A stretch of 60,594 nucleotides of DNA, counting the filler, from Sluysia triapertura (taxonomy: Eukaryota): NCBI GenBank assembly GCA_046118255.1. It is 4 parts of 4 records of this genome, joined end to end, with 100 filler letters (N's around TTAATTAATTAA, not from the genome) between each part and the next. Parts side by side here need not be neighbours in the genome. Positions count along the whole stretch, not along the records: positions 28,331 to 47,904 come from JBJNIA010058764.1; 3 more parts are not named here. The stretch is one strand, 5' to 3'. The translations under genes and the position numbers were made by a program. This document shows positions 274 through 60,297 of this stretch, piece by piece (position 1 is the first letter of the stretch; each line of letters opens with the position of its first letter). The notes below the pieces were generated by a model. That model ran no database searches. It was not told where the DNA came from and was given only the letters and a program-made list of their open reading frames with translations.

Positions 274-3200
274 ATGGAGAAACATAATCAAAATCATCAT
301 AAGAATTTTGATCTTAGTCAACTCGAATTAAAATGTTTCTGTAATTCTTTTATGCCACTACAGGAACACATGAATGTGAATCACAACGTACAAGAAACTG
401 CTTCATCCAATTCCACCTTCTGACTATCCAGGAATCCCCCGCAAATGGTGCTAATAATAATATTACAAATGTGAAGTTCTTCTCCGAATCCAGTGTTGAA
501 ATCCTTATAAGGAAATGTATCAACAACAATAAAATTTTAATCTTTTCTCCACTTCATTCGAAACTAAATTTATTGTTGAAAATATTACATTTAAAATGTG
601 TGAAAATATCGAAATGATTATTTTCCCACTCCGTTAATTATTTTCAACGTTTTAGAAAGAACTTCAATCATTTTTAATCCCGTGCAGCTCGAAGTAAGCA
701 GTCATGTGAATTTTCTACACGAAAAGCTTGCATCAAAACTGCAGAGTTTTTGTAGAATTAATAATGAATCTGTGAACTTGGTTCAAAGCATTAATCATAT
801 GACAAATAAAAATAAAACGCATTCGGTTCCAATAATTTGCGAGATTGCAGTAAAAGCTGCATTTTCGTTACAATATGACTACGTAGATGTACGTAACTTT
901 ACCAAGAAACTACAAAATACGGAAATAATTAAATTGCACTTTAAACAAAGAAGAATCCCACAAAACAACAGCAACCAAAATTAAGTATTAATAATAGAAT
1001 AATCTCGTGTCAGCAGTTACTTGAAAGTATTCAATGTATGGCACCAGAAGAAATGTGCAATGAAATCACAAGATATATCTAAAGAACTAGAACAGTAAAA
1101 CTTAAATCGTTATATTTAACAATTCGAAGCGAATCTTCTTACTGTGATTCGGAACAATTTTGAGCGAAATACAATCTTAATAAGAAATATGTATTCGAGA
1201 AAATTATCAATAACACGGTAACAGAAGAAAGTCCGAGCCGCGAAACAATAGAGAATTACTTTGAAAGCAAAAGTATCTCTCCAAATCAAACTAATTGGTC
1301 AGATATTCCGGAAATTAAAACTGGTCCACAATTTAGTTTCGATCAAATTTCCACATTAGAAGTAATATAAATACTGAAAAACTCCTCAAATTCTGCTTCT
1401 GGCTCTGATAATATTTCCTACAAAAATTTAGAATATTGCGATCCGAAAGCCGAAATGCTCACTTATCTATTCAGTAAAATAATAACTACGAAACAAATCC
1501 CGAATTCCTGGAAATCATATCAATCTCTAATGATACCGAAGCCAGATAAATCGGATTCTAAATCAATTTCATCGTGGAGACCAATTGCCCTCCTACAAAC
1601 AATGTATAAAATATTTACCAGCTGCCTTACAAATCAGTTAATGTCATGGATCACGGATAATCAGTTGTTAAACTCTTTCCAAAAATCAGCTGGAAATTTT
1701 GAGGGCTGCTCGGAGAATATCTTTATTTTAACAACCCTAATTGAGAAACACCAACATTGTTACTCTATTTTATCAATCCAAATTGCCTTTCTTGAAATAG
1801 CTGAAGCCTTTCCATCTATTCCAGTTGAACATACTGGAACACATGGGTGTTAATAGATATTCATTCAAACTTATCGAGAATCTCTACATGGGTTGCAGTT
1901 CAAGTTATATATGCGGATCAATAGTAACATCTAAAATTGAATTATGAAGAGGTGTTCATCAAGGATGCCCCTTATCTATGTTACTATTCAACATTGGAAT
2001 AAACCCAGTTATAACAGAAATATCCAAAGTGGAGCATAGCGGAATTAATTCAAATAACATAAAAATATCTGTTCTAGCTTATGCAGATTATTTGGCATTA
2101 TTAGCACCATCAAATTTTGTGTTAAAGAAAATGATAAATAAAGCTGTAAAAATTGCAGAGTGGACACAAAATTTAAACCCGAAAATTGCGGCTATTTATT
2201 CTTTCCAGAACCCAATTTCAATAATATCTAAGAACTCATACAAATACTTAGGAGTACATTTTGATCATTTCCAAAAGAGTTATTGGAAAAGCTATTCAAG
2301 ATTTTCACAAAATCTGTAAAAGTGAACTAAACCCTTGGCAAATGCTAGATGTATGTAAAACATTTATACACTCAGGTCTACAATTTACAATGAGAACATC
2401 ATGGTTCCATATTGACATACTATCTAGCCATGGATTCAAAAATTGCACTGATCAACATATAAAACAATCTGGATATGATGAAAAAATACTTAAACTGATT
2501 AAAGGAATTCTCAAGCTACCTCACTATGCAACTAATCATTACCTTTATTCTCCAATATCAAAAGGTGGAGTTGGCTTAATCTCAGCCAGGGATGATTACG
2601 CAGTAAATTCAATTATTTTTGCATTCCGAATGTTAGTTTGTTATGATGAAAATGTTGCCAAACTGCCTTTCAAGAACTTTTACATACTTCATCACGATAC
2701 TCACATTTACCATATAATTCTTAAAATCCAGATCTACCTGAATGGCTAAATTCTAGTCATGGGCATGATACATTTCCCAGTTGGTGGTGTAGGGTCAGGA
2801 ACAGCATTTTCTACCTAAATCACAACTTTTTCATTGCTATAAATTTTGTTAAATTAGAATTAGGTATTTGTTTAAAATTACAGTTTAATAGCAAAATTTC
2901 AAATATCATTGATTCAAAATTAATTACCTCTAAATATAAAAATAAAATAGGTGAAACATTGAGGCAATATATTAGTATGTATTACTTTTATAAATGGTCA
3001 GTACAAAAAGTTTGCTGGGAAATGTGCAACATCATTATCAAGCTCCAGAACATCAACAACAATTCTCTACCATGAAAACTTCGATATTATCCACAGATCC
3101 CAAACTAACTCCCTTCCAGTTAACGACAGACCTTATAGAGATTATAATGATAGACTTTGTCGAAAATGCAAAATATGGCCAAAATCACAATCTCATATTC

Positions 3201-3890
3201 TGAATCATTGTATCAACAACTCAGATATGATTACTGAGAGGCATAATTCCGCTCTCCGAATAATATCTAATTATCTAATAAATCTGCACGACTTCCAATT
3301 TAGACAGAATATGCGAATTCAGCTCAAGTATTTTGAGAGTAGACATACAATTAATATCAGAACCAAAGAACAAATGTATCCTCATCGATGTCAAAATACC
3401 TTACGATGAAGCGACCAATATGAATCTTTCTCGAACTCTCAACGTGACAAAATATCAAAACCTTGTCAATGAAATTAAATCCAAAAAGCCAAATTGGTAG
3501 TATTTCTCGATACAATTTGCGTGGAATCATTGGGCATTTGGCATCTTGAAAACAAAATCCTGAAACTACTTGGATTGCCTTTGGAAGTAATGGAAACGAT
3601 AAAGAAGGAATGTATAATTAAATCTATTGCAGAATTTATAATGTGCACAATAATGGTATATTCCTCGACAATGGTGATAGTGAAATCGAAATTAACGGAG
3701 CAGTTACATATGAAGCAGATATCAAAATAAGCAGATATACATGAAGCATATATCAAAGATGTAGATGTACATGAAACAGATATCTACGATGCAGATATAA
3801 GCGAAAAAGAATCCGTTGAGCAGAAATAAACGAAGAAGAAAGTAGTGCAGAAGAAAAAAATAAGGTGCAATCTATGAAACAGAAACAGCA
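274..3890 (+). mobile_element. Decayed non-LTR retrotransposon with restriction-like endonuclease (NeSL/Utopia/R2-group), many stops and frameshifts
   Basis: N-terminal Zn-finger remnant CFCNSFMPLQEHMNVNH; RT motifs IPK..WRPIALLQTMYKIF, EGCSEN, AFLEIAEAFPSIP, GVHQGCPLSMLLFN, LAYADYL, YKYLG; PISKGGVGL; CCHC knuckle CRKC..SHILNHC..RHN; RLE LRVD..CILIDVKIPYD..KYQNL..VESLGIW. Confidence 0.9.
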
Positions 3891-6800
3891 AACATTTGAT
3901 ATATAACAATTAACCTTATGTGATCTTAAAAATAGTTTTATGCTATTCTTATATATAGAGTTTTTAAACTCCCACTTTTGTGAATTTATATGTATCTATA
4001 CTATGTATGTACACTTTTATATTGTTTAAAATATATTATTTACTTGTCCTAGGCACCAAATTTTGCAAAGAATTTTCTAGACTTATAACGCAAAATATTG
4101 CTCTGGAGGCGAGTCCACCTAACAGAAACGTCTTATATCTGGTCGAAAGCGGTCTACTAGGCTTTTAAGAAGTAATAATTCGACTTTAGAAGATTCACGC
4201 ACTTTAAAATGTTTAGTTAGCTGAATGGCTGCGTTTAATAATTATCGGAAATTAAATATATTTTAGGAGATTTTGTGTTAGCCTTTTTACGGTCTAATTT
4301 AGAAAAATTTATATGATATTTTATGATTTTTATCTAGTCTTATTACGGTCTAGCGATGGTAAATGATTTTAATCTTTTAATAAATAATTCAAAACTTCCT
4401 ATAAGGTATATTATTGAAAAGAACTTTATATACAGAAAGTTTCAAATAAAAGAAATAAGCAATAATACACAATTTAGTACTTAAATCTTAGTGATTAAGT
4501 ACAAAGAATTTTAAACAATGGCTAACTTAGCCTGTTACGGTCTAAGTATAAAACAAATTATTATTCTAAGTTACATGGATTGAAAAACCAAATATTAGCG
4601 AAGATCAAATAATTTTCAGCCTTACGGCTAGTGTGAATTCTGTTAGATTCATTGGTTTTATACAGAATTCACGGTCGATATATTGCTCTATTTTTAAAAA
4701 TAGTTCATTTAAACAAATTACTTTTAATTTAAAAATTTTAAATGTTTAATTTTAGTTTATTAATATTATCTCTTTGATATAATAAAAATAAATAATTTAA
4801 TAAAATTCAATTTATAAATAAAATATAATAAAATAAATGTAATAAAATAAATGTCAAATATTAAATTATGTTAGAATTCAAATATTAGATCTTTGTTTCA
4901 CACTGTCCTTTGCAACCATTGTCAACTATAGCCTTGCCACCCTCACAATATTTGATTTGAGTCGATTAAAATATAACTCCAAACTAAATTCTATCACCTA
5001 AATTGTCGAAGTAGTACTTTTCTGAGTAGTTTAGATAATTAGATATAATTATATTAATACTCTTTACTACGGTAAAATAAAATTTAGCAGGGTCCTGTTA
5101 CAGAAACGACGTATGACGTTAAGTAGGCGTATCCGTAACTATAAAGACAACGAATTTATCCCTTAATTTAATTACTAACTAGCTCAATAAATTATTAGTC
5201 TGCAATTTTATTTAAATAAAGTTCAAATTATTTTATTAAAACACTGACTTTTTAATCTCTTCAATTACGATTATTCAAAAATAACAATAAGAATACTTTA
5301 AAGATTTATTCACAAAAAAGATTTTATTTGCAAATTTATATTAAAAGAAAAACTCAAAAACTAAATAAATAAATGACCTCAAAATATTGGTTTTAAAATT
5401 AAAACCTATTAAAGTCTTTAATTTTACTTTTCAATATTTTAATTATTAATTCTTCTTAACTCATTAAAATATTACTAAAATCAAATAGGGAAGTTTTGTT
5501 TTTAATCCAATATGCGTGCTAATTCCAAATGGAGTTGTTTCCGTTCAATGTCGCGAAATTGTCAAATTATATAGTATTATAATAAATTAGAATTAAGTGT
5601 CGGTATCCGAAATTATCGAAATATATTGCTAAATTAGATTATCAAATTAGATTGACACATTAAGTTGTTAAATTATCTTGTACTTGTAAATATTTAAATT
5701 ATGTAAAACTGTATTAAAATATATTAAAACTGTATTAAATTATGTAAAACTGTAAATATTTGAAAATTGTACATAATTAAATTATTTAAAACTTTAAAAA
5801 TATTTTTATTTTATAATTTGAATATTGTAGATTAAAAGAATTCTTAATATTAAAGAAATTGTAAATTAAGAATATTAATTTAATTGATTTTCGAATTTGA
5901 AACTTAAAATATCAGAATATTTGAATTATTCAGTGACTTTGGACTTTAAAATATCAATTATTTCGGAAATAATTATTTACATTATATCAAAATTATTGAA
6001 TTATTATAAATTATTTATAACGTAGGAAATAAACTGCATATAAACAGACTCGACTTCTTAAAAAAACAACAAAGAATAACGTTCTAAGATTATAACAATT
6101 TGCTGGAAAATTATTTTTGCGGAGAAAACTACCAGTATCAACGGTAAAACTTTTCATAATTTTCGTGGAGAAAGCTATCATTATCGTCAACTTCAGGAGC
6201 TATAGCGGATTACAATTCTATCTGGACATTCTTCGTATTATATGAATATTTATGCTATTTATTTTTAAGTTTTATTTATTTTTATATTTATTTTTATAAG
6301 TTTAAGTTTATTTTTATATTTTGCCTCAAAATCCACTTAAATTCGTCAATTTTTTAAAAGCTCCAGAATTCGCCTGAGTTAAAATATGCTTTAAACTTTG
6401 CGAGTTATTAATTTTAGATATATATAAATTTTGTAATATACTTATATTTTTGTTATACATATATATTTGATTTGTATTAAACCATTTTCATTTTTAATTG
6501 ATACTTTGTCTTGTTACATAATTTTACTATTTTAGTAAACGAGGAGTAAACTAGAATTAAAGAATATTTTCGTAATTATAAGAAATACTAAGTTAAATTT
6601 GTAAAGAAATAAATTGTTAAATCGAAAAATAATTAAGTTGTTTCAAAACATACATAGTTGACTTAAAAAGCTATTAAGATAAATTGCTCAGAAATAAGTA
6701 AATAAGTTCTTAAAGGATATTACATTACGTCGCGTCAAAGTAGTTAAGGAACTCTGCACGTAGCATTTTGACATTTGACATCCTGTTAGTACGTCTTCCT

Positions 6801-7251: not shown

Positions 7252-7409
7252 TGCTTTAAGGATACAGCCTAAAGTGCCATTTGATATAATGAACTATAAA
7301 TAATCTAAAATTGTTAGACAGTGCTGATAGCTCAGTGGTAAAACATCGAACTGTGCAGCGAGAGGTCCCGGGTTCGATCCCCGGTCAGTCCATTTTATGA
7401 AGTCTAACA
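7252..7409 (+). repeat. tRNA-Ala-derived repeat copy 1 (tRNA-like core 7321-7392)
   Basis: A box TAGCTCAGTGG, B box GGTTCGATCC, TTTT after core, bounded by TGTTAGAC..GTCTAACA, upstream GATACAGCCTAAAGTGCCA shared with other copies; anticodon arm irregular. Confidence 0.75.
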
Positions 7410-18380: not shown

Positions 18381-18602
18381 TTTAGAATTCGTAAAATGAC
18401 ACTTTAGGCTTGTAACTCAACACATCTCACCCAATTCAATTATGTTTCACCTCAAACATCTTGAGGATCATTTAATTCAACATCAGAAGGATATTCGATA
18501 TGTGGGTTCACCAAATGTTAAACATCACGAAGTGGACTGACCGGGAATCGAATCCGACACTTCTCGCTTCACAGCTGTGCAGTTCGATGCTATGACCACT
18601 GA
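18381..18602 (-). mobile_element. TRIM-like element: tRNA-containing 5' LTR remnant (18602-18516), PBS, ~90 bp internal region, PPT, internally deleted 3' LTR
   Basis: Minus strand reads ..TTTAACA-TT-TGGTGAACCC (PBS-like) ... TTTGAGG..GGGTGAGA-TGTGTTGAGTTACAAGCCTAAAGTGTCA-TTTTACGAATTCTAA; the last part matches both the start and the end of the other repeat copies. Confidence 0.55.
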
Positions 18603-32480: not shown

Positions 32481-32639
32481 TGTTGGGGTAAAAGGCCTAA
32501 AAAGTGCCAAGTAGTATAATTGAATATATTAAAAATGAAATTGTTAGAGGGGGCTGATAGCTCAGTGGTAGAGCATTCGAACTGTACAGCGATGGTCCCG
32601 GGTTCGATCCCCGGTCAGTCCATTTTACGAAGTCTAACA
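32481..32639 (+). repeat. tRNA-Ala-derived repeat copy 2 (best preserved; core 32551-32622)
   Basis: Acceptor stem GGGCTGA/TCAGTCC with G3:U70, intact A and B boxes, TTTT terminator; whole unit TGTTGG...TCTAACA. Confidence 0.8.
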
Positions 32640-32991: not shown

Positions 32992-33116
32992 TATATTTGC
33001 ATAATACCATAATAAGCATTCTCGCCTATAATTTGTTTAAATTATTAAATTAACAATTTATATCCGAAATGAGTTATGAAATTTCGATTTTCAACAATAA
33101 TCAAGAAAAAGTTTAC

Positions 33117-33280
33117 TATTAAATGCTTCGACCATTTGATTCAGTGTTTCCATAGAAATACCAGAATATCCTTTTGCCAATGTATTAATACGTAAAGCCA
33201 ACATCATACGTGCTTGTTCGATTTTCATTGGAGCACCAACACCACTGGCATGACTACGAATCAATGATAACTGTAATTCT
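33117..33280 (-). CDS. HAL: Internal exon of histidine ammonia-lyase (histidase)
   Basis: ELQLSLIRSHASGVGAPMKIEQARMMLALRINTLAKGYSGISMETLNQMVEAFN flanked by TTTTAG acceptor and GTAAAC donor; other exons not located by eye. Confidence 0.9.
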
Positions 33281-35125
33281 CTAAAATAAATCAACCAATA
33301 ATATACATTTAACATTTGTTTAAGCAGTGTGAGTCATTTTTGTGACATTTATAAATTTAAATTCATATATTTAAATTATATGAATGATGGCACAAGATTT
33401 GTACTACGAGCTGAATTCGGTGAGACAACTAATCAATAACATCGAAAACTTTTTGGTGGGGTTTGAAATGATCGAAATTTATGTTTTATTAATCAAGAAT
33501 AAGTTCGTAATGTTTGTTATAGTTCAATCTTGTTTACTTTTATTTTGGATTATCATAGTCGACTAAGCAAACAAGAAAATAAGAATTTACTTGAACAATA
33601 TTTATCTAGTTGATTTTATGGAGTATTTTTGAAGAATTTGGTAAATTTTTACCACAGCCAGTGACCATTTGACATACGTAGAGTAATATTTACTAAATCA
33701 TCAGTAATTCGATTTAATCTATGACTTAGACTTATTCCATTCGATAAGTCTGGCTTACCTTGGATTCCGAGACCTTTTAGCATTTATTGTGCACCACACG
33801 ATGTCCATACTTGACAGTGATAGTCTTGATTGTGTAAAGGTGTATAAAGTTTTATTTTTATGTTTGTAATTTTATGTAAAATAATTATAAAAATTATTAA
33901 AATTTATATTATTTAAAAAATTATTATTTCAATTATAATTATTATTATAAATTAAAAAACACCTAAAAAGAAACTTCTCGAAAGAAGTTTGTTTAATTAA
34001 AATAAAAATTTTAAAAATGTTTTTATAACTATATAAAGACAGACAAAGAAAATAAAGTCACAATTACAATTACAATCACTTATAAAGAAATCGCCATAAT
34101 TGAAAAAGTTACTACGCCATTTTCTAATTAGTCAATTGGATTCGTGGTAGAACTAATAAAATTCAGGCATCATTAGTAGGAAACAACAAGTCGACATCTC
34201 GGTATCAGATTATTCTCGAAGGCTTCAACAATCTCCAAACTAACATTTCATTTAGTTACATCGTGTCCCGCGTCTACGATTAGAGGAATGATTTTTCATC
34301 TTCCAGAACACAATCCATTTAAAAGGAAAAACAATAAGCGATTATCAGCGTTTATTATTGATTAATCGTAAGTTTGATTTATATAAGTTGCTAATCTAAA
34401 TGTCCGTAAAGTACTATTTTTCATGGTTTCTCATTAAGGCCATTCATAAAATCACATTAAAATATAAAATCTTAGACCTTTAGCTGGCCCTTAAGGTCAA
34501 TTATAAAATAGATATCGTAGGGTAGAGTCTTTCGGCTAGACCCTTATTACAATTTAAATATTATCGTTATTTTATATTATTTAATCATCATAACTGTCTA
34601 TCGCATTAATTTGTAGTAATTGTATTTTATCTAATTTTTGTATAATAAAAGCTATTGGAAAATTTGTGAATTTCTTCTAATATACAAGTATAATTCCATT
34701 AGAACTCATAGCTATTTTATTTTAGTAGTTATTCATAGTTAATATATAAAATGTATATTCATTGCTTTGAAAAATTACATTGATTTCAATAATAAATCCT
34801 TAAATTTTTAATAAGAATTATAAAGTTTTACGGTTATTATATTAATATTTGAAGACATAAAAGTATTACCATCGTTAATCATTTGATTTTTTCATAAACT
34901 AGCGTTGGTCTTGATTATTTTTAAGCGATTTAGATTTAATTGATATAAATGACGATTTCGCACATTATTGTTAAGGCAAATAAGATTTTTGTACGACTAA
35001 TTTTGATAATTATTTTCACGTAATTTTACAGGTATGCCATTAGTAAGTCGTATATTGTAAACGGACTCATAATAATTAATTGTTTTGCTGTAGGTTAGGT
35101 TTTTAGATTAAGAAAAACACGCAGC

Positions 35126-38576: not shown

Positions 38577-40625
38577 TTAAGCGCTTCAGGTACTTTTTTT
38601 GTTACAGATATTATCACTACATCAATATATAGTTAAAACTTTCAAGCTATTTAAATATTTAAATAATACAAATCAAATTGAAGATTGTATTTTTTAGTTG
38701 AAAATTTATATAATGATTTATATTAATGATTTTGTTATACAATTTCTCACTAAGTAAATTAAAATTAATACATAAAAACGAAAAAAATAATTAAAATAAT
38801 ACACATTGAAAATGTCAATCAAATTTAATTCAAATAAAACATGAATAATTAATACAAATTAGAATCAAATATATCGTACGAAATATATCATAAATGCATT
38901 TTCGATGGCTTTAAAAATTAGTGACATTTAATTAAAAAAAATTTGTCAGCAAAATTACGCAACATAATTGAAAATATGAAAAATTACAATTTAAAGAAAG
39001 CGCTGTTATTTCTAAAATATAAACCAATAAACCAAGCAAAAATAATTCCAAAGTTTAAATAAAACTATTTAAAACAATTAATAAAATTTCTTTGCAGCAT
39101 TTTCACGATGCTTTTGATACATGAAAAATACGATAATAAATACTACTTGTACTACAGAAATAAAAAATATGAAATATGTTGATATACAATAGTGACATTT
39201 TGTATTTTCATAATCTTCTGAATTCTGTTTACGCAAAGTGCGATCAACATATGCAAGCTTAAGAAAATAATAATAATGTAAATAAAATTGATAAAATTAC
39301 GAAATATAATGGCACGACGCACGCCTTAATATTTAAATAATATTTATTAATAATAATTATTAATACTGTTATTATTAATTAAATAAATGAAAATAAATGT
39401 ATAATGTTAACATTAAATAAATAAAAATAAATGAAAATTAAAAATAATTTAATTATGCTAAACGAAAATTTATGTTAAATGTTAATAGTAATTGAAATTT
39501 AGAATAATTCATTATGATGGAGAAAATTGAAATTATCCACTGTTATATGAACAATAATGAAATTAAATAATTTATTTAATAAAATGAAAATTGTTAACGA
39601 ACTATTGAAAAAATAAAATTATAATAACAATGTAATAACATAACAGACCGGAACAAAGCAATAGAATATATTATAAATAAAATAATAAAAAAAGTAATTT
39701 TATTATATAATAAAAACAATTTTATTAGGTGATAAAAATTATATTCAACATTATTACAAGAAATTGGATATAAATATCCAAATTTTATTGTTAAAGGTAA
39801 TTGATTTAGTAAAAATATATTGATTCGATTTTAAAGTGTCGAGAATCTTAAAGGATAATGAGTTCGATTCCAGGTATTTTAAATGACAAGGTCAAGGTAA
39901 ACAATTATTGTTTATTAACATATTTTAATCTATTTTAATCATATTTTGATTTCAATTTTATCAAAATAACATTAAACATAAATTAAAAAGAAATTTTTTT
40001 TAAATTTTCTAAAGATCATTTAAAATAAATTTTTTGGACATTTTAATCGTTACATAAATTATTATTATTTATTATTTTGTCACAAATTTTAGAATAAATC
40101 GCTTTTCATATATTGTATTGTTAAATTTATATTTTTTACGTTGTTATAAATAAACTTTAATGAGTTTAGTTTATTTTAATTTAATTAGTTAAAAGGGGAA
40201 GACGTGAATTTACTCTTATCAGAGACGAGTGAACAGTAACCTCCGGAAATTATCATAAGTGTTAAAAAATAATCACCTTAAATTTAAGTTGCGCATAAAT
40301 TGAGTAGAAAGATCAAAGTTATAAACTTAATATAATTTTATTCTACGAAAAATTTCTATAGATGTGCCTTTCATCTATTATAGGCGAACTCAATAAACAA
40401 GTAATCTTGATTTATTTTGTGATAGTTTTATATATAAAAGAAAACACTCGCAAATAATTGGCGGAATAGTAAAAAATTTACAATTAAGTGGCCAGGTGTA
40501 ATAAAATAATTGTTAATCAAGTGTACAGGTGAACATTATAAAGGAAAACAATATGGTCAGGTGTAGTGTCAAGAATAATGTAGTATGAGAAAAGTAACAG
40601 CTGTTTGAACTTTTAACAAGGAGGT

Positions 40626-42580
40626 TTGAGAAATATAATAAAAGGAAAAGAAAATCAAAAAACGGAAGAACCAACCAATCTAATTACACAATTATTTGGT
40701 AATAACGGCAACTCATTAAATAATGCAATACCACGAATACAGAATTCAACAAATAATATGTTATTTATTATAATACTGTTAGCTATGTTTGGTTTAAATA
40801 GGACTAATGCGATAAAAGCATTTGATTGCAGCCAACCACAAATAGGAAGGGAATTTTCATTACTAGATAGAAGAAAACCCGGAATCGAGACCTAATCGAA
40901 TACAAATAAAAGATACTAAAATCATGAGTGTTTAACAAGAAGGTAACCTAGTGACAACTATGGTAAAAAGTGTATGGTAAAAGGAAATGTAGCAATTTGG
41001 TATTGTGGCCACCACAGTCATTCATCTATAATTGAATTATCAAATGTATTAAAACCATTTAAGATATTACCTAATCAATGTAGAGATGCATTTAAGTCCG
41101 GCTATATAAGTCTAACTAAGGAAGACTAATTAAAAATCGGAAATAATGAAAAGATAATTTATAATATAAGAACCGCGTGAAATGTATTCATAGACGGAAC
41201 ATGCGAACAAGGGACAATTGAATATGAAGGAAAAATATATATTAATGTTGTCGCACAGGAAACATACGTAATTAGTCTAAAATCATCTAATGAAAGTTTC
41301 AATATGGAAAAAGGTACTATGATGTCCCGATCAGACTGCAGAAGTGATCAAACCAGTTGCGATACTGGAGAATCAATACTAATTTACGAATTGGACAAAA
41401 TTCAATGTCCATTAATATTTCTTAAACAAATAAAATTTAATGTAATATCAGGATTCATGTATCAAGATAAAGTCGAACATCCATTTGAAGAAATAAATAA
41501 GAATACCGACCACATTCAAAGAAAAAGATTGGATGAAGTAGAAACACCGTCAATACTAATGGCCAGCAGCGAAGATGGTCTGACTTTTATCGCCAAAGGA
41601 AAAGTAATTCGATGTGGAAGAGAAATAACAGAAACTAACTATCAAGGAATTTTCCTCTGAAAAAATAATTCAACAATCTAAATAAGGTGTCGATACAAAA
41701 ATATAAAATTAAATGTCTATTTTAACAATAAAATTGATATTCTACTATCACTTAGGTTTAATTTCATTGGAAAAAATCTATCAAATTATGGTTACCCGCG
41801 ATTGCCAATTAAATAAAGAAATATTGCGTACAAAATTAGCAATAGCAATCACAAATCCAGACTTAGTCGCACCATTACTACCATTAGGAGTCTTTGGTCG
41901 ACTAATGGGAGAAGTATTGTACACATATAAATGTAAGAAAGTTGAAGTTCAATTAAGATCAACTATTGAATGCACAAATGAATGCCTATATTGTATGGTA
42001 AAATAGAAACATATCTAGAACCGATAACTAGAGTAATCTACCCGAATAATAAAGTCAAACCGAAATTAATGCACTGCTCAAATGTTATGGTACCAGAATA
42101 CAGAACTGACGATAATTTATGGATATCCTTGCCACATAGGAGTCAAGTAAAAACTCCGGAAATTATAGGATTAACCGAACTAAAAGGTAAACTAAAGTTT
42201 CTAGCAACAAAAAATATACATAATTCTGGCATTTACACAAATGACGATATTCAAGCAGCTTGGCGGGAAATATTGTTCCCAAAAGATCAAAAATATTAAC
42301 AGAAATAGTAGATAAAGCGACAAATAAATTTTGAATTACTATTAGGACCTGACCATTTTAAAAGAGCAGCGCAGGATACATTAAAACACATAGGGGGAAA
42401 CTTTCTAATATTAGGACAGGCATTTTCCGGATTAATATGTATTTATATAATAATTAAAGTAATTGCACTAATATCTCAAGCATTTTAGGTAATAGGAATT
42501 TATAAAATATCGGGATTCACCTGTAAACTATTAATCGGATGCTTTCCATTTTTGGCAAAATATCTATTGCATCATCACGC
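40626..42580 (+). pseudogene. env: Chuvirus-like (class III fusion) envelope glycoprotein, frameshifted
   Basis: Signal peptide MLFIIILLAMFGLNRTNA then AFDC..FSLLD, YCGHHSH, DGTCEQG, CQLNKEILRTKLAIAITNPD..GEVLYTYKCKKVEVQLR..CTNE.PI..YLEPITRVI..CSNVMVPEY, SGIYT, C-terminal hydrophobic segments. Confidence 0.8.
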
Positions 42581-42799
42581 TAATGCGCAGATAAACGCAT
42601 TAAGAAAGGAAAGGCATCAATCGGAAGAAAGACAACAATTAAATATAACTTTACAATCATTACAGAACAACGAAAACGAAGAAATTATAGAAAATCAAAA
42701 AATTTATGGAAGTCAAAAAGTAGAAGACAAAACAGTTAAAGAAAATCAAAGTAAAGGGTTACATCATATTACTCCAACATCACCACCACATGTAATCTA

Positions 42800-43480
42800 T
42801 ATGATATGTGCTAACAATAATTATAATGGATCAAAGAGACCAATGGTTAATGTTAGAGTAAATGGTAGAATAGTAACAGCACTAATCGATATAGGAGCGG
42901 TAGCTTCCTTAATCAATGAAAATTTCTTAAGATGAATTAGAAAACTTAGCTATTCATACTTCTCACTTATCAGGAGTTACAAGTGATGTCATTAATATAA
43001 ATGGAGTGATGAAAGCGACATGCGAGATAGGACCAAATAAATTAGAAATTAAATTAAGAGTTAAGAAAAAATGTCCAGAAGAAATGATAATGGGAATGGA
43101 CATATTGTCTCAATTAAAAGGAGTAACACTAGATTACGACCAAGTTAAATTAATGGATAGTCGATCAAGAATAATAGGTAAACCATATCATATAAATAAG
43201 ACTCCACGTTGTTTGCAATACGCACATAGACCAATGTTGATAGCATTTGCATTAGATACAAAGCGAAACAAAGAAAGTGCAAAATTTGGTGCAAAATATT
43301 GCAGCAAATAGGTATACGAACAAATGTGCATCTAAAGTTGAAAATAAAAATAATCTATCAAATGATATAGTACCTAATGTTATTGCATTAATAAATAGTA
43401 ATTCTTATAATAATATATGCAATTTGAATCATATTGCACGTAATTGATCTTAGATGAAAAATGTGTATTTGCAGTCAATA
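42800..43480 (+). pseudogene. Retropepsin-like aspartic protease plus post-protease domain, downstream of env
   Basis: RPMVNVRVNGRIVTALIDIGAVASLINENF (DTG mutated to DIG) and MIMGMDIL flap-end motif. Confidence 0.8.
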
Positions 43481-44082
43481 AAAATCTGATACTTTTAATG
43501 TTATTTATGATAATCACTACAGTACAATGTAATATATATGATGTACAAATCTATAAAACCGAATATCTTGAATTTCGAAACTATGATACTGAAGTAAGAG
43601 TTAAAGTGTTGCAGAATGATATTCAAGGGAGATTTATGTGCCTTAAACCGGCAAGACTCAATTTTAGTTCATGGAACGCACAAGAATCTTATATTAATAA
43701 CCTGGTGAATCCTATTGCTATATGTACCGATTTCTTGGCTAATGAAGAAGGGCACATTATTGCTAGAATATATGTGGCGCCAGCAAGGTTAGAACAATTG
43801 CATTTCGCCCTAAAAGGAACAAGAAAATATCTATCGTTATCGGAAATGTTAAAAAACGATCCAGCTCTGTTGATACTAATATTAGCAGCAACACTGTTTA
43901 TTATCGCTCTATCAATAGTTATACTAGTAATTATTATGGTTGTGTCAAATAAATGTAGATATCCATGTTCACCTCCAAATAGTGACGATGACGATCGGTA
44001 TACTATTCCACACAGAAATAATTTTGAGCTGCCACCTGGATTTCCATTAGTACCACCTCCTGTCTACGAATATGCAACATAA
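43444..44082 (+). CDS. Type I membrane protein within the retroelement, with a PPxY cytoplasmic tail
   Basis: Signal-like LILLMLFMIITTVQC, ~110 aa ectodomain, TM ALLILILAATLFIIALSIVILVIIMVV, tail ending PPGFPLVPPPVYEYAT*; uninterrupted. Confidence 0.65.
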   Translation: MILDEKCVFAVNKNLILLMLFMIITTVQCNIYDVQIYKTEYLEFRNYDTEVRVKVLQNDIQGRFMCLKPARLNFSSWNAQESYINNLVNPIAICTDFLANEEGHIIARIYVAPARLEQLHFALKGTRKYLSLSEMLKNDPALLILILAATLFIIALSIVILVIIMVVSNKCRYPCSPPNSDDDDRYTIPHRNNFELPPGFPLVPPPVYEYAT

Positions 44083-44115
44083 AATAATTTACCATCAATG
44101 TACGGAGGTTGGAAA

Positions 44116-45105
44116 ATGACAAGTCTGCAATCAATAATGTTAGTATGCATATGTATGACTTGAATAATTAATACAAAATCAATAATTCTGAGACCACGAA
44201 TTACATATAGAGCGCTTCGACAAACAATATATGCAAAAATCACTAATATCTCCATGAGTTGCTTTTTAACTAACTGGTGTAAAAACGGATCTGACATTAG
44301 TAAATATACAAAATATCGGGTAATGCTTTGCAATGATCTTGTAGAAAATCAGTTATTTAATATTTCTCTAGAACTAGAATTTGAATATGAACCAAATCAA
44401 AACTCAAAAGTTGTATCAATACATAATTATAAAATTAGGACAAAACCTTATGTTTTTAATCATTTGTCGGTAACTATTAAATTTCCAATGTTATTGTACA
44501 GGGAAAGTAATAATTTTGTACGCATATCAAATCCTTTAATAGAAAATGCTATATAAATTGGTCACGATGTAAATAGAAAGGACTCACCCAAGAAAAATTT
44601 TGATGAACTATTTGACAAAGAATAACACTATGCATTAATACTTCCAGAAACTAGCATTAATTTATTCTTTGAACCAGAACATAATATTACATTTATTGAG
44701 GTTTGGATTTTACGTTACAATGAAATTCATGATACACTTGGATTTTGGCCAGAATATAGAGTATGCGATTTAAAAGTACCTATTTTGAACAAACCCGATA
44801 TTATTACTAGTGCAACTTTGACTACTACTATCACGACTACTATTTTAAGTACTAAGAATACCACATATAAAGTTAAAAACACAAGCTTCACTACTAATCT
44901 AAGTAAAAATTTAAGTTTACAACATCAAAATTATTCATACGTAAGTTCTATTACTAATTCTGTAGTAAGTCTGCATCAAGCTATATTCATCTACTACGTT
45001 GTAACTTATTCTCTTTTAATTTTATCAATAGAACATGGCATTTTTCAAGTTCATAAGTTTTATCAATTTATTAGGCGTAGGAATCACATTTTTATTAAAG
45101 TATAA
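44116..45105 (+). pseudogene. 330-codon membrane glycoprotein-like ORF with three in-frame stops
   Basis: ATG 44116, ORF 44254 and ORF 44785 are all in one frame; signal-like N-terminus, Thr/Ser-rich stalk with NxT/S sequons, hydrophobic C-terminus. Confidence 0.6.
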
Positions 45106-45363
45106 ACATAAAATATAAATTTTAATATAAGACATAAGTATGAATAGGGGCATCTCCGGTTTTCTGGCCATATGTGATAGCTGTTAACTATCCTTTTTCG
45201 GCCGCAAAAAGGTGATGTTGAATAACTCATATTTTGTTTTATCTCTAGTTTTGGTTAGTTAAGTTAATGTAAAATGTATTTTCATTTTAATGTATTGATA
45301 AACTTAATTCTAATATTTAATTTAGTAAACTTTTGTTATAATTAATTAATATCAACTTATTAT

Positions 45364-45816
45364 ATGTATTTTTCTTTTCAGACTAGTTATGTCTACACAA
45401 CTTCGTTTCACTATGCTCTGACCGTCCCTTGCAAACACAGATTCCACGTTCGCTGCCTTTATTTTCTATTTAACTCCCAACTCCTTTTCCTCTGTCGCAT
45501 TACAATCAAAGAATGCGACATCTACTATCGTAAAATATTTCGAAAATCGTATGACTTTACTCTGGAGTATGTCGGACCCGATTCACATTCTGTTGTAGCA
45601 TATAATGGGCTCCAGGATGATGCAACTATTGATATCTTCCAGCCTCCAATTTCATTAAAACCTAATATTTTGTATAATGGATTTCAGGTACCCAGACCTG
45701 AGTATCCACTGGGTCTGACAAAATCTCAAAAAAGACATTATAGGAGAAGACAGTTAAAACGCTTTTATAAGTTAAATGCTAAATTGTGTAACAACCCCTT
45801 TTTAAAGAAAAAGTAG
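45364..45816 (+). pseudogene. Degenerate RING-H2 finger protein with basic C-terminus
   Basis: VPCKHRFHVRCL...FLCR matches CxHxFHxxC..CPxCR; tail KRHYRRRQLKR; preceded by acceptor-like TTTTCTTTTCAG. Confidence 0.55.
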
Positions 45817-45933
45817 TTTCTCATAAATATTATTATTTTATTATAAACAATTCATCCAAATTAAACGAATTACTTTTATTTATTTTTTTGTTGTAACATT
45901 ATGTTTTATCTCTTTCTTACTATTATTATCAGC

Positions 45934-47160
45934 ATGTCCAGTTTAACATCAACAAGTCAACAACTCCCCGAAGCAAAGATCATTCATCAGATTAAGCCTT
46001 TCTATTTCTCTGTTGATCGTTTTTGTAGAGAAAACCACCCCTGCCTTTTCCCGACTGCAAGCTCAAGAGTGAATTGACTTTCCCTTTCAGCTAATAGCCC
46101 ACATTTATCTTTAAAAGGGTTGCCTGATGCTCCTAATGAATTCGAATCTCTATATGTTGTTGTAGCTCGAGGTGATGTTAGAGTCAGCTTAGTTGTTAAT
46201 GGAGCCCTACTTTTGTTACGCGTCGAAGGAGGTTCTACCTTGTATATCACGGCATTATCAAAGAATTGCTGTGTATCTTGCCCTTCTTTTCGTTCTACCA
46301 CTTGCGCCCTTCCCTTCCTTTTTGCCAAATCCTTATGCCAACGATACTCCTAATCTGGGTAGATGAAATAGTGGTATCTCCTATACACACGTTTCCCCTC
46401 TTTCAGCATATGACGAGGAGCGTTTAGTTTTTATTTCAAATCAATACGCCCTCGATTTCTTCAACAAACTTCATATTCCAGGCCTCGCTTGCACGCCTTA
46501 TAGCAAGCAGTTCCATATTAAACCTCGTTGTAGGATTAAGAAATTCTTTGAGAAATATACAGCAGGTATCGGACACAGATTTGAAGGAGGCTAAGAACAT
46601 CGATGATGTTAAGCCCTTTTTCTTTGGTCACCTACAGGACAAAATTTTGGTGTCCTTGAACCCTCGCTTCATCATTGAATCTCTACAATTTTCAATTTTC
46701 TTCGTGCAAGACAGACACTCAAACTACTATATCCTGTCTGTCCTAAATTTTCATGTAAGGAACTCGAATCCGAGTTGGTTGAACTTCTAGATCTGATTAG
46801 GGTTAAGGATCTAATGTTCATTCCTAATTGTAATAAATCCCCACCTCCACTTTTTCCTGAATCATCTAAAACTCCTACTAAAAAATTTTCTTTTTCTTCT
46901 TGTTCTCTCTTTTTCTGAACCAGCAGTATCTGATGAGATCAGAAAAGCACTACAACCACTCCGACAAACAATGCAAAATCGGTCTCTTCATGCAGATAAT
47001 CAAATTGTAAAAATGGTAAAATATTTCGAGCAGCGTACTCCGATGTGCCCTTCTCCACCTCTTCACCCACCTAAAAGAAAATGGAAAACACCCTCTGTAC
47101 GGCAGCACCAATGAGTTACGTACCACATGCCTCACCCGTGGATCTGGATTCTGAATAACT
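45934..47160 (+). pseudogene. Disrupted unknown ORF(s) before the PPT
   Basis: Raised GC, ATG right after TTATCAG, collinear fragments 46120-46353 and 46548-46790, Pro/basic PPLHPPKRKWK. Confidence 0.35.
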
Positions 47161-47904
47161 ATATCAGATTTGAGGACAAATATTCCCTATGCAGGGAGTA
47201 TTTGTGAGAATGATGAAAATTGACAAATGACAAAAAAAACAAATCTGAATTTTGGCGAATGTGATTTTTGTGATTGTGAGAATAATAATAATAACATTTG
47301 TTTTAATGACTAAATAATAATTTATATAATAAAACAGTTTTATACAATATAATTGTGAATACTGTAAATAAATATTTTTATTAGAAATATTATATATATA
47401 AAAGTATATAAAATATTAATATTATATTAATATCAAAAATTAAAGTTAAATTAATATTAAAAATTAAAAAATGTTAATAAATAAAAATTTTTGTTTTAAT
47501 CAGGAAAAATATTTATTGTTTTGTTTAAATTCAAAGAATGTTCTAATTTCCAAAATGGTGGAATCAAAATTAGTATAAATAGTAAGTAATTTTTTCTTTA
47601 AAATATTAAGCAAAAATAGTTGTTAGATTTGCCAAAACTTCTCTCTGAGAATCTTTCTGAAATTTATTGTTCAATATCCATGGTAAAAGTAATTCTATTT
47701 TAAATCTTACTTAAAATATCATTCTTTTGCAAGACCATAAATTGGTTTGCTTAAATTGAAACTAAACGAAATTAAAAGAGAAATTACTAAGATAATATTA
47801 AGTAATCGTTGAAATCATTATTTTTTATTATATTGTTGGGATTAGTGAAGAATAAGGGTTGATATAAGGGTCAAAACTTAGGATAACAGAATAAGTGGAA
47901 CGTT

Positions 47905-48004
47905 NNNNNNNNNNNNNNNNNNNNNNNNNNNNNNNNNNNNNNNNNNNNTTAATTAATTAANNNNNNNNNNNNNNNNNNNNNNNNNNNNNNNNNNNNNNNN
48001 NNNN
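47905..48004. other. Artificial contig linker
   Basis: N44-TTAATTAATTAA-N44. Confidence 0.97.
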
Positions 48005-48237
48005 CCTTAAGCGCTTTTGAGTACTTTCGCGGTAGATATGAGCGCAATATAAATTAATATATTATTATTATTATTATCTAAAAATAATTAAATATATGTT
48101 TTAATAAAATAATTTGTATCTAAAAATAACCTATACTAAGAATAATATAATTAAGAATATCTTAATATCATTAATTATTTATAAGATTAAAAAAATGTTA
48201 TAAATTGTTAAAAAATTTATAAATTATAAAAAATTAC

Positions 48238-48396
48238 TGGATACAGGGTTAAAGTGACATAGAATAATGATAGTAATTGACTAAAATAAAACAATATTGT
48301 TAGACGGGGCTGTTAGCTCAGTGGGTAGAGCATCAAAATATGCATCGAGAGGATCCGGGTTCGATTCCAGGTCAGTCCATTTTATGAATTCTAACA
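48238..48396 (+). repeat. tRNA-Ala-derived repeat copy 3 (core ~48307-48379)
   Basis: Same TGTTAGAC..TCTAACA core and upstream GATACAG..TAAAGTGACA. Confidence 0.75.
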
Positions 48397-52476: not shown

Positions 52477-55144
52477 ATGCTTTTAATTTCAATATTTCTT
52501 TATATATGTTTCAGTATTTTTTTCAGTAACACTCAAGGTATATTTTAATTTTTAATAAAATAAAATATTCAGATTGTAGAGGATCCAAAAAATATGAATT
52601 GTGTTATTATGCTAATGTAGAACGGATTATTAATCCAAATGAAATAGTAATTAAATTGTTGAAATCGAACAAAATGTTGACTATTAGTTTAATTGACGTA
52701 TATATTCCAATAAACAACAATACCCAACGTTCGTTTTCACAATATATTGAAAGCTTATTAAGTGGTAAAAGTCAAAAGATAAAAATTAAAACTACGGAAG
52801 AATATATGAAACAACCAGTTGTGCCAGTAATATTATATATAGCTCGACGGAATATTAATAAGTTTATTATTTTTATAAAAAATTAATTTATGATGAGACT
52901 TTTATTAAAAGGTTATTCTTTCCCAAACGATGCCATTCCAATCACTTTAAAACGCGTTATTGATGGTGATACTTTAAGTGTTTTATCTAAGTTTGGAAAT
53001 TACGAATTACGTATTCGAATGGTATACATAGATGCCCCAGAAACAAAGCAGGAATTCGGTTCTGAATCTACAAATCATTTGAAGAAACTACTAACTAACA
53101 CAGGTGGTGAATTAGTATTAGTTAAGCAACAAAAACCTGATAGATACGGTAGAACACTGGGAGTAATTAAGATAGGAAATATTGATATAAATAAGTTAGA
53201 ATTGATTTTTTTATTTATTCTAACTATTTTTATTTATTATTTATCCTAAAATAAATAATATTAACAAATTTTGTAAAACTAATATATTTAGAAAACATAA
53301 TTTATATTAATTATTTTATATTTACCAAGGACATTATTGTTGTTTTGATCAACATGAAGTAAAAAATTTATGAAAATTTTAGGAATGAATGGAAGTTAGC
53401 AAATTAGTTGAACAAATAAATCAGATTTTGAAACTGATTCAGACCATCATACTTTTAAAAAAATAAAATTTTATTTTTTTTAATAATAATAAAATTTATT
53501 GTAACATAATTTTGCCATCAAACTAATATTCAATAAGCAGGGTTTGGTCAGATAACGTAAGATCACGTTTTTGAAAGAGTATAAAAATGTTCCATAAATA
53601 TTTAATTTTCAGGCTTATTTTAGATTCTGATTACAAAAAAATATCCGCATTCATACATTTTTTCATTGATACATTGATCGAAATTTTGGTGAGATGTTAT
53701 TTTTATTTAATAAAACAATTTTGAAAATCATCGATAATCATTGTTTACTAGCAATGTATATCAACCCATTTAGTTGTTTAACAAAGTCTGGTGAAACAGC
53801 GATAATTTGATATATTTTATCACATATAGTTGAAAAATTTTCGTTTTAATTATTATTTGCTTAAAACAAAATACGAGTAATTAAACGACAATGTAAATCT
53901 GTCATATAATAATTATATGGTTAACATTTTTAGTAGGTGTTATCTGTTTAGTCAAACAGGATAAAAATGAAACTGATGATACACATGATAAACAAAACGT
54001 GATATATAAATAAGTTGATGTTTAATTTACATTTCGATATTTTGTTTAATTTTGTTATATAATTTGTAGATGTACAAATTCTAAAAAATGCTGTACATGA
54101 AATACTTAAATGTATTCGTTTAATTTCAACATTTACTTAATTGAATAATAAGTGTTAATATTAATATTATTATTCAAATTAATTTTTTGAAAAATTATCA
54201 AAATAAATCCAATCCAAAAACAAAATTATACATTTTATTGAAACTGAACTACAAATATCGTTTCTGAAAAACTTTTAGGAGTCCTTTGAGTTATTTAAAC
54301 TGAATTGATAATGTCTTGTACAGATCATCAAATTTTATGGAAATTGGAAGCTTACCAAATCTTTGTAAATTGTCTTTTTTCGTATAATGCACTTTATAGA
54401 TGTTACTTCTCCATTTATGTGCATAGTTTCTACCACGCTGTGATGAGAAAGAACAACCTTATTAAAAGCATTCAAATTCAATCCAGAAAAACCTTATACT
54501 CAAAAACATATATTCTACGGAAAACAAGAAAACTTCATCTACAAAAAGTGTTTTCAAAATGACAGTTAACTTTTAAAAGCATAGCGGCCTTTTTTTAATT
54601 TTTGAAAAAATAGAAATCGGACACTTATTTCTGGACGGAAGGAGTAATATATTACATTATTAACACATACAAATATCATACGTACAACAGAAATGTCATC
54701 GAAAATTTTCTTTTAATGAATTAATTTTTTTAAAACAATCTTGTTTAATTACGAATTTATCTTCATTTGATAGTATATCAGAGGACAGAATATAAGCATT
54801 CTCCATCCATCAATGCAAGAATTTCAATTTCAACTTTCAACAAGTTCTTGTCCATTTTTTCTTTAAGTTTTGTAACAATGTTTGTCTTTAAGATATAAAG
54901 AAAGCATTTGGAAACTTAATTTTTGTTATAATAGAAGTATTTAAACTTTAAAATTTTGTATATAATTCATTATAGACAAATGGTAGTGGACGGTTATGCT
55001 TGGTGTTATTTAAGAACCAGGTGTCCTTTAGATTATCAACAAGCAATGAAAAATGCAGAAGAAACTAAAAAAGGATTATTTGTTTCTAATATAGCACAAC
55101 CACCATGGGAATGGAGAAAAGAAAATAACAAACGTCACATTTAA
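52477..55144 (+). CDS. Putatively secreted staphylococcal nuclease (thermonuclease)-family protein, two SNase domains, 271 aa; exons 52477-52537, 52573-52861, 52898-53194, 54976-55144
   Basis: GT-AG introns of 35, 36 and 1781 nt with matching phases give an 816-nt CDS; signal-like MLLISIFLYICFSIFFSNTQ; domain 2 has RVIDGDT, RIRMVYIDAPE, DRYGR, GYAW, KKGLF, PPWEWRK. Confidence 0.88.
54620..54646 (+). mobile_element. Stowaway/mariner-type terminal inverted repeat inside the nuclease intron
   Basis: Reverse complement TA-CTCCTTCCGTCCAGAAATAAGTGTC resembles the CTCCCTCCGT..ATAAGTGTC TIR; partner end not found. Confidence 0.55.
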
Positions 55145-58510: not shown

Positions 58511-59554
58511 TTATTGAAAATAAGTTTTATATTTGATTAGATTTATATTCAATTTAAGTTTTGGGAATCGATTGTTTATATTGTTGTCTACGCTGCTATG
58601 ATTATCGTGTGTCATGACATATTTCAAGTATTTGAATTGATGGAGACGTTTGTATAATTTTTGTTCTTTGTCGAACTCTAAGATGTTTTTATTGTCGAGA
58701 TTAGGTCTGTATGAATCTCGGAGCGCTATAGTTATTTTACAGTATATGGTTAATTCGTGATGACAAAATGATTCATCAAAAAGATCAGCTAAAATTACAT
58801 TAATACTTAAAATCGAGCCGTTATAAAACTGTTTATCATAGACGGCTATCAGAAACGTGCTAACATTTAAAATTCCCTTACAAAAAATTTCTTGATCGGA
58901 TACATTTATCGTGGCATTGTCTTTATTGAAAATTATATCATTAAAATTAAGACGTGGTTTAAGAACATATATTATATTTACATAAAATTTGAAAAGATTA
59001 TATATCTTCCTGGGGCTCAGCCTCGTTCGTACCTTCTTCTTCATTGATCCATAAGCAGTTCTGTAATTAGAATGATAATATATAAGAAAGTCAATATATG
59101 TATACATACAGTTATGATAAAATTTTTTACCTTTAAACAATGGCTGTTCTTCGGATGTATTGTGCCATGCTAATTCGTTCGGTATTAACTCGAGGTAACC
59201 GTCAGGTTCATTGGAGTGGCAAAATGTTACTTGGTAACCTCTGGCATAGTATTTACAATTAGAGGCGTCACATAGATAATTGTTTAAGGAACATGTACAG
59301 TGGGAATCTATGGACGTTAAACCTTGTCGTTTCTCGCATCTTGGTGTACTTCCTTTAACTGAAATTTCTGCAACATCTAAAAATGTAATTTTGACAACTC
59401 CTGCTTTATTCCACTTTAGTGCATCATCAATCTTGGCAGTAATTAAATCTAAAACTTCAACAGAACGTGTATCATGTCTAAGAACATCCATCGTGTAGAT
59501 TATCATTTGACTTTTAACAAAATGGTTGTCGTGTTTATTTTTGAGAATGTTCAA
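58511..59554 (-). CDS. Intact intronless 347-codon ORF of unknown function
   Basis: Longest ORF in the window despite AT-rich background; Cys/His cluster HCTCSLNNYLCDASNC; first ATG at codon 17. Confidence 0.6.
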   Translation of the reverse strand: MNILKNKHDNHFVKSQMIIYTMDVLRHDTRSVEVLDLITAKIDDALKWNKAGVVKITFLDVAEISVKGSTPRCEKRQGLTSIDSHCTCSLNNYLCDASNCKYYARGYQVTFCHSNEPDGYLELIPNELAWHNTSEEQPLFKGKKFYHNCMYTYIDFLIYYHSNYRTAYGSMKKKVRTRLSPRKIYNLFKFYVNIIYVLKPRLNFNDIIFNKDNATINVSDQEIFCKGILNVSTFLIAVYDKQFYNGSILSINVILADLFDESFCHHELTIYCKITIALRDSYRPNLDNKNILEFDKEQKLYKRLHQFKYLKYVMTHDNHSSVDNNINNRFPKLKLNINLIKYKTYFQ

Positions 59555-60297
59555 ATATTTAGAATCAGTAATTATGAAATTACTTTCCTTTTAACCACAA
59601 TGGCTGCCGTGATTATTTTAAAATGTCTGGTTTTTTATTAATCTTTCAGCCGTTAATGTATTTTACTGTATTTTCACTTGGCTCAATTGGTAATTATGTC
59701 TGGTAAGTATTAATTTTTTGTAAGCACTTTTAATCGATGGCTAATGATAATTTTCTGACATTTTATTGGGCAGAACCAGTAATAACCAATCCGGCTTGTT
59801 TTTTTGATTTATTTTTTAACTAATGGTTGCCAATAATATTTTTGCTGCTTTAATTTTAGTCTGAATTCTACTGGCTACCCAATCGACTTGCGTTATTGTC
59901 TTCTTGTGAGTAATTTTTATTTTTGTCTCTCTGTTCTATTCATATTACCAAGTCAACTGACAAAAAAGACAGATGACGATGATGATGACTGTTATTGTGC
60001 GCTCTGATGCAATAGCTGGTTTGATTGGATGTACAAATCAGTGGATTGTTTATTGTGTACTGTGTACTTTGTGTGCACAGTAATTTAATTTTTGTAAGAT
60101 TCAATTATTACGTAAGAATGTGAATTGATGTTGAGAGATTCTTACGTAATAATTGTAACTGTGAAAATAACGAAATGACGTACTAATGTGATAACAAGTA
60201 ATAGTAATAATGATTAATAATACTGATAAATAATAATAATAAATGATAATAAAATAATAATAATTAAAATTAGAGTGTATAATAATAATATTAATGA

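Follow-up and report, generated by a model that had tools for sequence, protein, structure and literature searches.

Positions 40626 to ~47150 of the window, a 60,594-nt stretch of DNA from Sluysia triapertura, harbour a dead retroelement remnant that likely derives from a Burro-like Ty3/gypsy provirus of gag-env-pol order, with a set of 3′ accessory genes (open reading frames, ORFs, A to D) probably surviving behind an internal deletion. The locus lies within the part of the window that comes from JBJNIA010058764.1 (28,331–47,904), and the sources for Burro/GYPSM1 elements are reportedly Jurka 2007 and Grohme et al. 2018. All features occupy one strand, in the order env, retropepsin, ORF A, ORF B, ORF C, ORF D, a motif resembling a polypurine tract (PPT) and a TG dinucleotide, confirming the collinear ORF remnants described in an initial annotation of this DNA. 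Plus-strand coding remnants span the entire interval, with one plus frame poor in stops in most 300-nt bins. Within 43312–47160 the longest run free of stops is 212 codons, whereas 300 shuffles averaged 89 and never exceeded 157. Outside of the element GC content is 15–33 % per kb, the window being AT-rich, of animal type and interrupted by gaps. To judge only from these AT-rich flanks with their introns and from the Burro-like layout, the host is probably a flatworm.

The env gene encodes a broken class III fusion glycoprotein, in which a signal-like hydrophobic stretch, an ectodomain and a membrane anchor (~42400–42480) are recognisable. It persists as five pieces (40758–40877, 40962–41753, 41764–41982, 41982–42290 and 42327–42614), with five in-frame stops in the aligned parts and several frame breaks. 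The Pfam family PF24664 (Monjiviricetes_fusion) matched three of four env-region ORFs scanned (E 0.0076, 1.5e-13 and 9.8e-11, the latter two in unbroken pieces), and attained E 6.8e-43 on the env frame with X placed at stops, whilst the piece at 40962–41753 keeps all eight aligned cysteines of a relative, P0002; the chuvirus-type env of the initial annotation is thus upheld.

Relatives were sought with queries of differing breadth. The whole env-protease frame yielded none from 4086 candidates, a 77-aa core of env two from 65, and an alignment, A1, five from 7995 (P0003 included), adding P0008–P0011; a metagenome scan gave at least two loci (L002 and L003) from 591 stretches. The lone viral-contig locus, from five scans, proved to be a T4-like phage and was dismissed as spurious. 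Over the 77-aa core, the closest env relatives found are P0002 (71 %) and P0003 (65 %), both of which carry env fused to retropepsins. By tblastn, env matches P0002–P0011 and L002 at E 1e-63 to 1e-104, and L003 at 1e-37; in its best-conserved piece, identity is 57–73 % with seven relatives and 41 % with L003.

The arrangement of these relatives is informative. P0004, a 4844-aa protein in the cluster of P0003, reads env, protease (PR), ankyrin, PR, reverse transcriptase (RT), RNase H (RH), integrase (IN), PR and membrane protein, and the pol of its cluster-mate P0005 has Ty3 Gag-Pol as its best match (E 1.9e-122). Among the matches listed, L003 comprises a single 2693-aa ORF of gag-env-PR-RT-RH-IN-membrane protein, gag precedes env in all five relatives that reach that far (P0008, P0009, P0010, L002 and L003), a protease follows env in all seven that are long enough (P0002, P0003, P0004, P0008, P0009, P0010 and L003), and pol is seen ahead of env in none. 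CCHC knuckles occur in the gag of the same five (P0008, P0009, P0010, L002 and L003), and a Ty3 capsid is present in relatives, whilst no Pao-family Pfam domain is listed among the relatives' domains. Lesser matches are a Bcl-2-like segment directly ahead of env in both P0009 and P0011 (E ~1e-3, below cut-off) and, in L002, a ubiquitin-like one (E 0.005), likewise weak. Judged by sequence, the env-protease segment is homologous to relatives ordered gag-(ubiquitin-like, Bcl-2-like)-env-protease(s)-RT-RH-IN within a single polyprotein. Since these place gag before env and PR-RT-RH-IN after it, env-protease represents the middle of the element and not an addition behind pol, contrary to the 3′ half with an appended env that was first proposed. 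The suggested origin from an invertebrate-type long terminal repeat (LTR) retroelement is nonetheless borne out by relatives that join such an env to gag and a Ty3/gypsy pol, and the question of Gypsy or BEL affinity, raised at the same time, is answered by the relatives' pol, which is Ty3-like and not BEL/Pao.

The retropepsin is broken at ~42935 and its catalytic motif is degenerate, with 159 aa separating the env anchor from the catalytic Asp, versus 142–385 aa in six relatives. When compared with 19 proteases of the relatives, two D-T/S-G motifs (P0008 ~482, on the gag side, and P0004 ~1930, in the ankyrin region) having been dropped before counting, it scored best with P0010_1987 (151) and then with P0004_2211 (133), the rest reaching at most 110. 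P0004_2211 is the one before RT in P0004, and P0010_1987, being the last protease of its ORF, is taken as Pol-type. Because the best scores go to Pol-type proteases, the window protease is probably, with moderate confidence, the ordinary Pol protease and not the second one initially annotated; protease trees are mostly lacking in resolution. Serial retropepsins do occur in the relatives, with seven in P0004 (two of them after integrase), four in P0008, three in P0002 and two each in P0009 and P0010, and most of the extra copies, in contrast to the Pol protease, terminate in a motif that contains Trp. Downstream of the window protease, 610 nt separate the catalytic Asp from ORF A, whilst in P0004 and L003 ~3.2 kb lie between Asp and the end of integrase. 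Comparison with four relative gags matched no gag in the window, and no match to a Ty3/gypsy RT-RNase H-integrase was found there. Gag and the ~3.2 kb of RT-RH-IN are missing from this copy, which is unable to replicate by itself.

Beyond the junction, ORF A has a hydrophobic N-terminal stretch and a further one that would span the membrane, both judged by eye, and carries a C-terminal PPVY that is predicted to be cytoplasmic. No homologue was accepted for it, the best Atlas value being 0.75; phmmer over 1.84 billion representatives gave two matches, both repeat-rich, bacterial-looking proteins with multi-stretch alignments, which were rejected. Its single-sequence model has a pLDDT of 38. ORF B carries nine N-glycosylation sequons, a stalk of 43–50 % Ser/Thr and a hydrophobic C-terminal stretch (by eye); it belongs to no Pfam or PHROG family, the best PDB match has an E-value of 1.5, and two other pieces of it occur in the public run X1 at ~83 % identity. 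The two extra membrane proteins of the initial annotation therefore stand as regards the PPVY of the one and the sequons and stalk of the other, with membrane segments assigned by eye. As both ORFs are repeated, to judge from X1 depth and the two other pieces of ORF B, neither is likely to be a single host gene.

ORF C retains a C-x-H-x2-H-x2-C core and the last Cys in frame, amounting to five of the eight ligands of C3H2C3. This core, which the window contains a single time, turned up in one of 150 shuffles, but the Pfam zf-RING matches stay below cut-off (E 0.004–0.08); the HRD1 RING gives E 0.96, and Atlas RING clusters (0.83–0.84) serve as a lead only. A ubiquitin ligase, as in the initial annotation, is likely. 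A splice-acceptor-like site at 45381 sits just ahead of ORF C, 8 nt before its starting ATG. For ORF D, a model of the piece at 46078–46350 (pLDDT 59) returned no Foldseek match at E ≤ 0.001 and a best VIA Z of 7.0 (root-mean-square deviation 3.6, 88 aligned), which does not exceed the background usually seen; a resemblance to cupin or dUTPase folds was unsupported by these searches. The PPT-like motif is weak, consisting of six purines (AGGGAG) followed by TATTTG and then by TG at 47203. The pattern, fitted after the site had been seen, is unique in the window and recurs in one of 100 shuffles. Of the Gypsy-type PPT and TG claimed at the outset, motif and dinucleotide are present, but the tract has only six purines, and no partner LTR or second LTR copy exists in the window, where a gap follows at 47906. 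A 12-nt purine run at 40191–40202 (+), just left of the repeated segment, is more PPT-like than that at 47190, and may mark the end of another element.

Table 1. Positions, strands and basis of assignment for the retroelement remnant and the gaps of the window
Feature	Position	Strand	Basis
Pre-env polyprotein stretch, degraded; left edge of repeated segment	40300..40757	+	In frame with env from 40617
env, broken class III fusion glycoprotein	40758..42620	+	PF24664; tblastn to relatives
Linker and retropepsin, N-terminal half in frame with env tail	42621..43310	+	PF00077 E 1.9e-5
Junction, RT-RNase H-integrase expected but absent	43200..43497	+	Spacing; no gag/pol match
ORF A, intact, 194 aa, predicted type I membrane protein	43498..44082	+	Sequence; no stop
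ORF B, ~335 codons, 3 stops, predicted membrane glycoprotein	44098..45105	+	Sequence
ORF C, partial RING-H2 remnant, basic C-terminus	45383..45816	+	Motif; sub-cut-off Pfam
ORF D region, broken coding remnants, 40 % GC	45934..47160	+	Stop-poor frame
Degenerate PPT-like motif, then TG; possible 3′ LTR start	47172..47206	+	Pattern scan
Gaps	14155, 28231, 47905		Linker TTAATTAATTAA inside each

Linkage of ORFs A–D to the env element is judged fairly likely. They share the strand of env, with coding continuous over 6.5 kb, and no repeat boundary (LTR, inverted repeat or duplication) was found at the junctions between ORFs. Additional support for a 3′ accessory block comes from the membrane proteins that end P0004 and L003, these being both of the relatives that reach past integrase among the matches listed. 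Each has a signal peptide and a membrane anchor and belongs to no Pfam family, with that of P0004 (~4361–4844) bearing a Ser/Thr stalk and that of L003 (7690–8521) nine Cys and six sequons.

A number of observations weigh against a single element of this kind. The public run X1, possibly the source sample, contains the stretch; contigs matched at 80 % likeness give summed depths, which by the tool's own warning do not equal copy number, of ~1e5 for env-protease, 4e3–1.6e4 for ORFs A–B, 80–2700 for ORFs C–D and 12–28 for locus-specific contigs. Depth thus drops ~10-fold past the protease, and ~100-fold again ahead of the RING ORF. A locus-specific contig spans 43139–43627, and among the contigs listed for X1 none bridges the protease–ORF A junction in a second copy. 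Base composition shifts at ~45100, from A-rich sequence of 30 % GC to 37–40 % GC without A-skew in ORFs C–D, and ORFs A–D display no significant similarity to the post-integrase proteins of the relatives (best z 3.6 in 56 comparisons). Further upstream, 40150–40760 shows no significant match to the Bcl-2-like region or integrase C-terminus of the relatives, leaving no detectable Bcl-2-like or ubiquitin-like remnant in this degraded stretch before env. Of the 19 proteases scored against that of the window, the Pol protease of L003 comes only 16th (score 82), and an env tree, built on another piece, lacks resolution. Also within X1, a locus-specific contig stops at 40343, beyond which depth climbs; the contig joints 47209>39705, 47464>38749, 42327>45821 and 42794>46605 were discarded as short or AT-rich. 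No RNA holder of the stretch appears among those listed, and none of nine window ORFs is present exactly in the protein collection.

The two depth steps, the locus-specific contig across 43139–43627, the composition change and the want of homology between ORFs A–D and the relatives would also suit a chimera, in which a Burro-like env-protease fragment lies beside one or two unrelated pieces (A–B from one repeat family, C–D and the PPT-like motif from another) via recombination, template switching or nested insertion. This is thought unlikely, although it fares best of the rival explanations. The unbroken coding run on a single strand, the junctions devoid of LTR, inverted repeat or duplication, and the membrane proteins borne at the same end by P0004 and L003 all speak against it; moreover, fast-evolving 3′ genes would likewise fall under the 80 % matching threshold.

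A second alternative appears improbable, namely a gag-pol-env element of which this locus would be the 3′ half, env following integrase and carrying a second protease of its own. The extra retropepsins of the relatives (two to seven per polyprotein), including the two located after integrase in P0004, would accommodate such an arrangement, as would a KWPG stretch near 40490, which by eye resembles an integrase C-terminal motif. Yet no relative has pol before env among the matches listed, the highest scores of the protease fall to Pol-type ones, and the ~600 nt preceding env stands at background against integrase C-termini, with 103 of 186 background tiles scoring equally high; a Bcl-2-like reading of the same ~600 nt stood at background too (86 of 186 tiles). 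Finally, a non-retroviral endogenous chuvirus element or an Anakin-type BEL/Pao element is very improbable, for although the Pfam family is that of the Monjiviricetes glycoprotein and Anakin elements carry chuvirus glycoproteins (PMC7642597, available text), env is here fused to a retropepsin, a Ty3 capsid and CCHC knuckles go together in the relatives with a Ty3-like RT-RH-IN, no Pao-family domain being listed, and nucleoprotein and polymerase families are absent among the ORFs scanned.

Under the favoured explanation, a decayed Burro-like provirus with surviving 3′ genes, an internal signal sequence in the intact ancestor would send the env ectodomain into the endoplasmic reticulum within the Gag-Env-Pol chain, and the membrane anchor would bring the chain back to the cytosolic side for release of Pol by the protease. 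Class III env trimers on budding enveloped particles would then fuse them with new cells. These steps are drawn from the topology of the relatives and general knowledge of polyproteins, and the accessory roles from motifs only. ORF A may recruit NEDD4-type ligases via PPxY, either for budding or for removal of a host surface protein, whilst ORF B could be a stalked attachment or shield glycoprotein and ORF C a RING E3 ligase made from a spliced subgenomic RNA. A bolder proposal, advanced tentatively and on present evidence doubtful, is that of a Burro-related retrovirus lineage with a spliced 3′ cassette (a PPxY budding protein, a stalked attachment glycoprotein partnering the fusogen, a RING E3 and a fourth protein), the locus belonging to an amplified, pol-less satellite subfamily that keeps env, protease and cassette. 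If the link is true, the element would combine a fusogen and a separate stalked glycoprotein with a late-domain protein and an E3, the gene complement of a virus that has an extracellular phase. That gypsy elements with an env form infectious particles outside insects as well is offered as a hypothesis for Burro in the available text of PMC6431247; the link, if proven, would strengthen it and name proteins to test.

Elsewhere in the window, a short tRNA-like repeat occurs at 7312–7409, 32542–32639 and 48298–48396 (+), with a diverged copy at ~18516–18600 (−). It is flanked by the inverted 7-mers TGTTAGA and TCTAACA, and may be a short interspersed nuclear element or an LTR-like unit as in Ajax (PMC10886601, as far as its available text goes). 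An ARAGORN call of a transfer-messenger RNA at 47856–48379 spans a gap and this repeat, and is taken as an artefact. The minus strand holds an unbroken 359-codon ORF at 58511–59590, possibly of viral origin, with an N-terminal match to mRNA cap guanine-N7 methyltransferase (E 9e-8), as well as a histidine ammonia-lyase-like exon at 33091–33333 (E 6e-18). On the plus strand are a staphylococcal-nuclease-family gene in pieces, apparently split by introns (52530–55144; SNase E 5e-10) and by eye resembling bacterial thermonucleases, and a decayed non-LTR retrotransposon with RVT_1 matches in two pieces (1371–3730).

Amongst known systems, Burro/GYPSM1 are giant gypsy-like LTR elements of planarians, with polyproteins of ~4,900–5,100 aa and an internal region of up to 25 kb. 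As given in the available text of PMC6431247, their order is gag, ubiquitin/SUMO-like, BCL2-like, env in frame between gag and pol, and ankyrin repeats; the env matches mononegavirus fusion glycoproteins, accessory ORFs are present, and decayed copies are found in Dugesia japonica. The window env, compared with Burro by description only, is likewise a mononegavirus-type fusogen in frame before a protease, and the relatives supply gag-CCHC, ubiquitin-like, Bcl-2-like, env, ankyrin and PR-RT-RH-IN, with a polyprotein of ~4,800 aa. Giant size and ankyrin repeats are wanting in the 7-kb window copy and present in P0004 (4844 aa, ankyrin). The window copy also differs in having no gag, RT, integrase or paired LTR, whilst the Burro description, in the available text of the same source, names no PPxY protein, stalked glycoprotein, stand-alone 3′ RING-H2 ORF or serial retropepsins, RING appearing only in an AIR1 annotation.

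A further comparison concerns GAG-ENV-POL Ty3/gypsy errantiviruses, which carry an env of herpes simplex virus glycoprotein B (gB) type and are recorded from Nematoda, Bryozoa and Platyhelminthes (PMC13524379; Sacco et al. 2022 cited there), with nine flatworm elements listed, six of them in Schmidtea. These share a class III env between gag and pol, of which L003 is a compact example. The window has the gB-type env with signal and anchor, albeit broken, lying directly upstream of the probable Pol protease; it has neither RT-RNase H-integrase nor gag upstream of env, whereas the elements of PMC13524379 are intact, so far as its available text describes them. The copy is a remnant, and is not classed as a member of this group because gag and RT-IN are absent and the Burro likeness is by description only. 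The same source's main text, as available, contains no occurrence of 'accessory', 'RING' or 'Burro', and no account of serial retropepsins or post-integrase membrane proteins was found in the available Burro and errantivirus literature (PMC6431247 and PMC13524379).

Other glycoprotein-bearing elements are more distant. Anakin is a BEL/Pao element with a chuvirus glycoprotein (PMC7642597), and insect gypsy elements carry the same glycoprotein (PMC13524379); in the available texts, these share the broad glycoprotein family of the window env but differ in superfamily or gene order, with no env-protease fusion or accessory block described. A BEL/Pao pol with the glycoprotein downstream is not what is found here, the relatives' pol being Ty3-like and located after env. 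LTR elements of bdelloid rotifers, in the available text of PMC5408684, have a varied ORF3 and an F-type env after pol. They are similar in their small 3′ membrane ORFs and non-env cargo, and in the non-autonomous TelKA2n, which bears env with most of pol gone, whilst their cargo is an esterase or exonuclease, with one extra ORF as opposed to the four of the window. Troyka (PMC12440569, available text) has no env, and was set aside as irrelevant. Nothing met with in the available literature describes elements of this sort that carry a PPxY protein, a stalked glycoprotein and a RING-H2 ORF at their 3′ end, or that have serial retropepsins, a scope outside of which lie Grohme 2018, Sacco 2022, Repbase entries, figures and a sequence repository, all of which may bear on the point. 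With regard to the undescribed lineage first suggested, the layout is already published for Burro/GYPSM1 (PMC6431247) and for GAG-ENV-POL errantiviruses (PMC13524379), as their available texts demonstrate. The locus thus represents, in its core, an already known kind of element; its possible novelty resides in the accessory block, which is probably undescribed.

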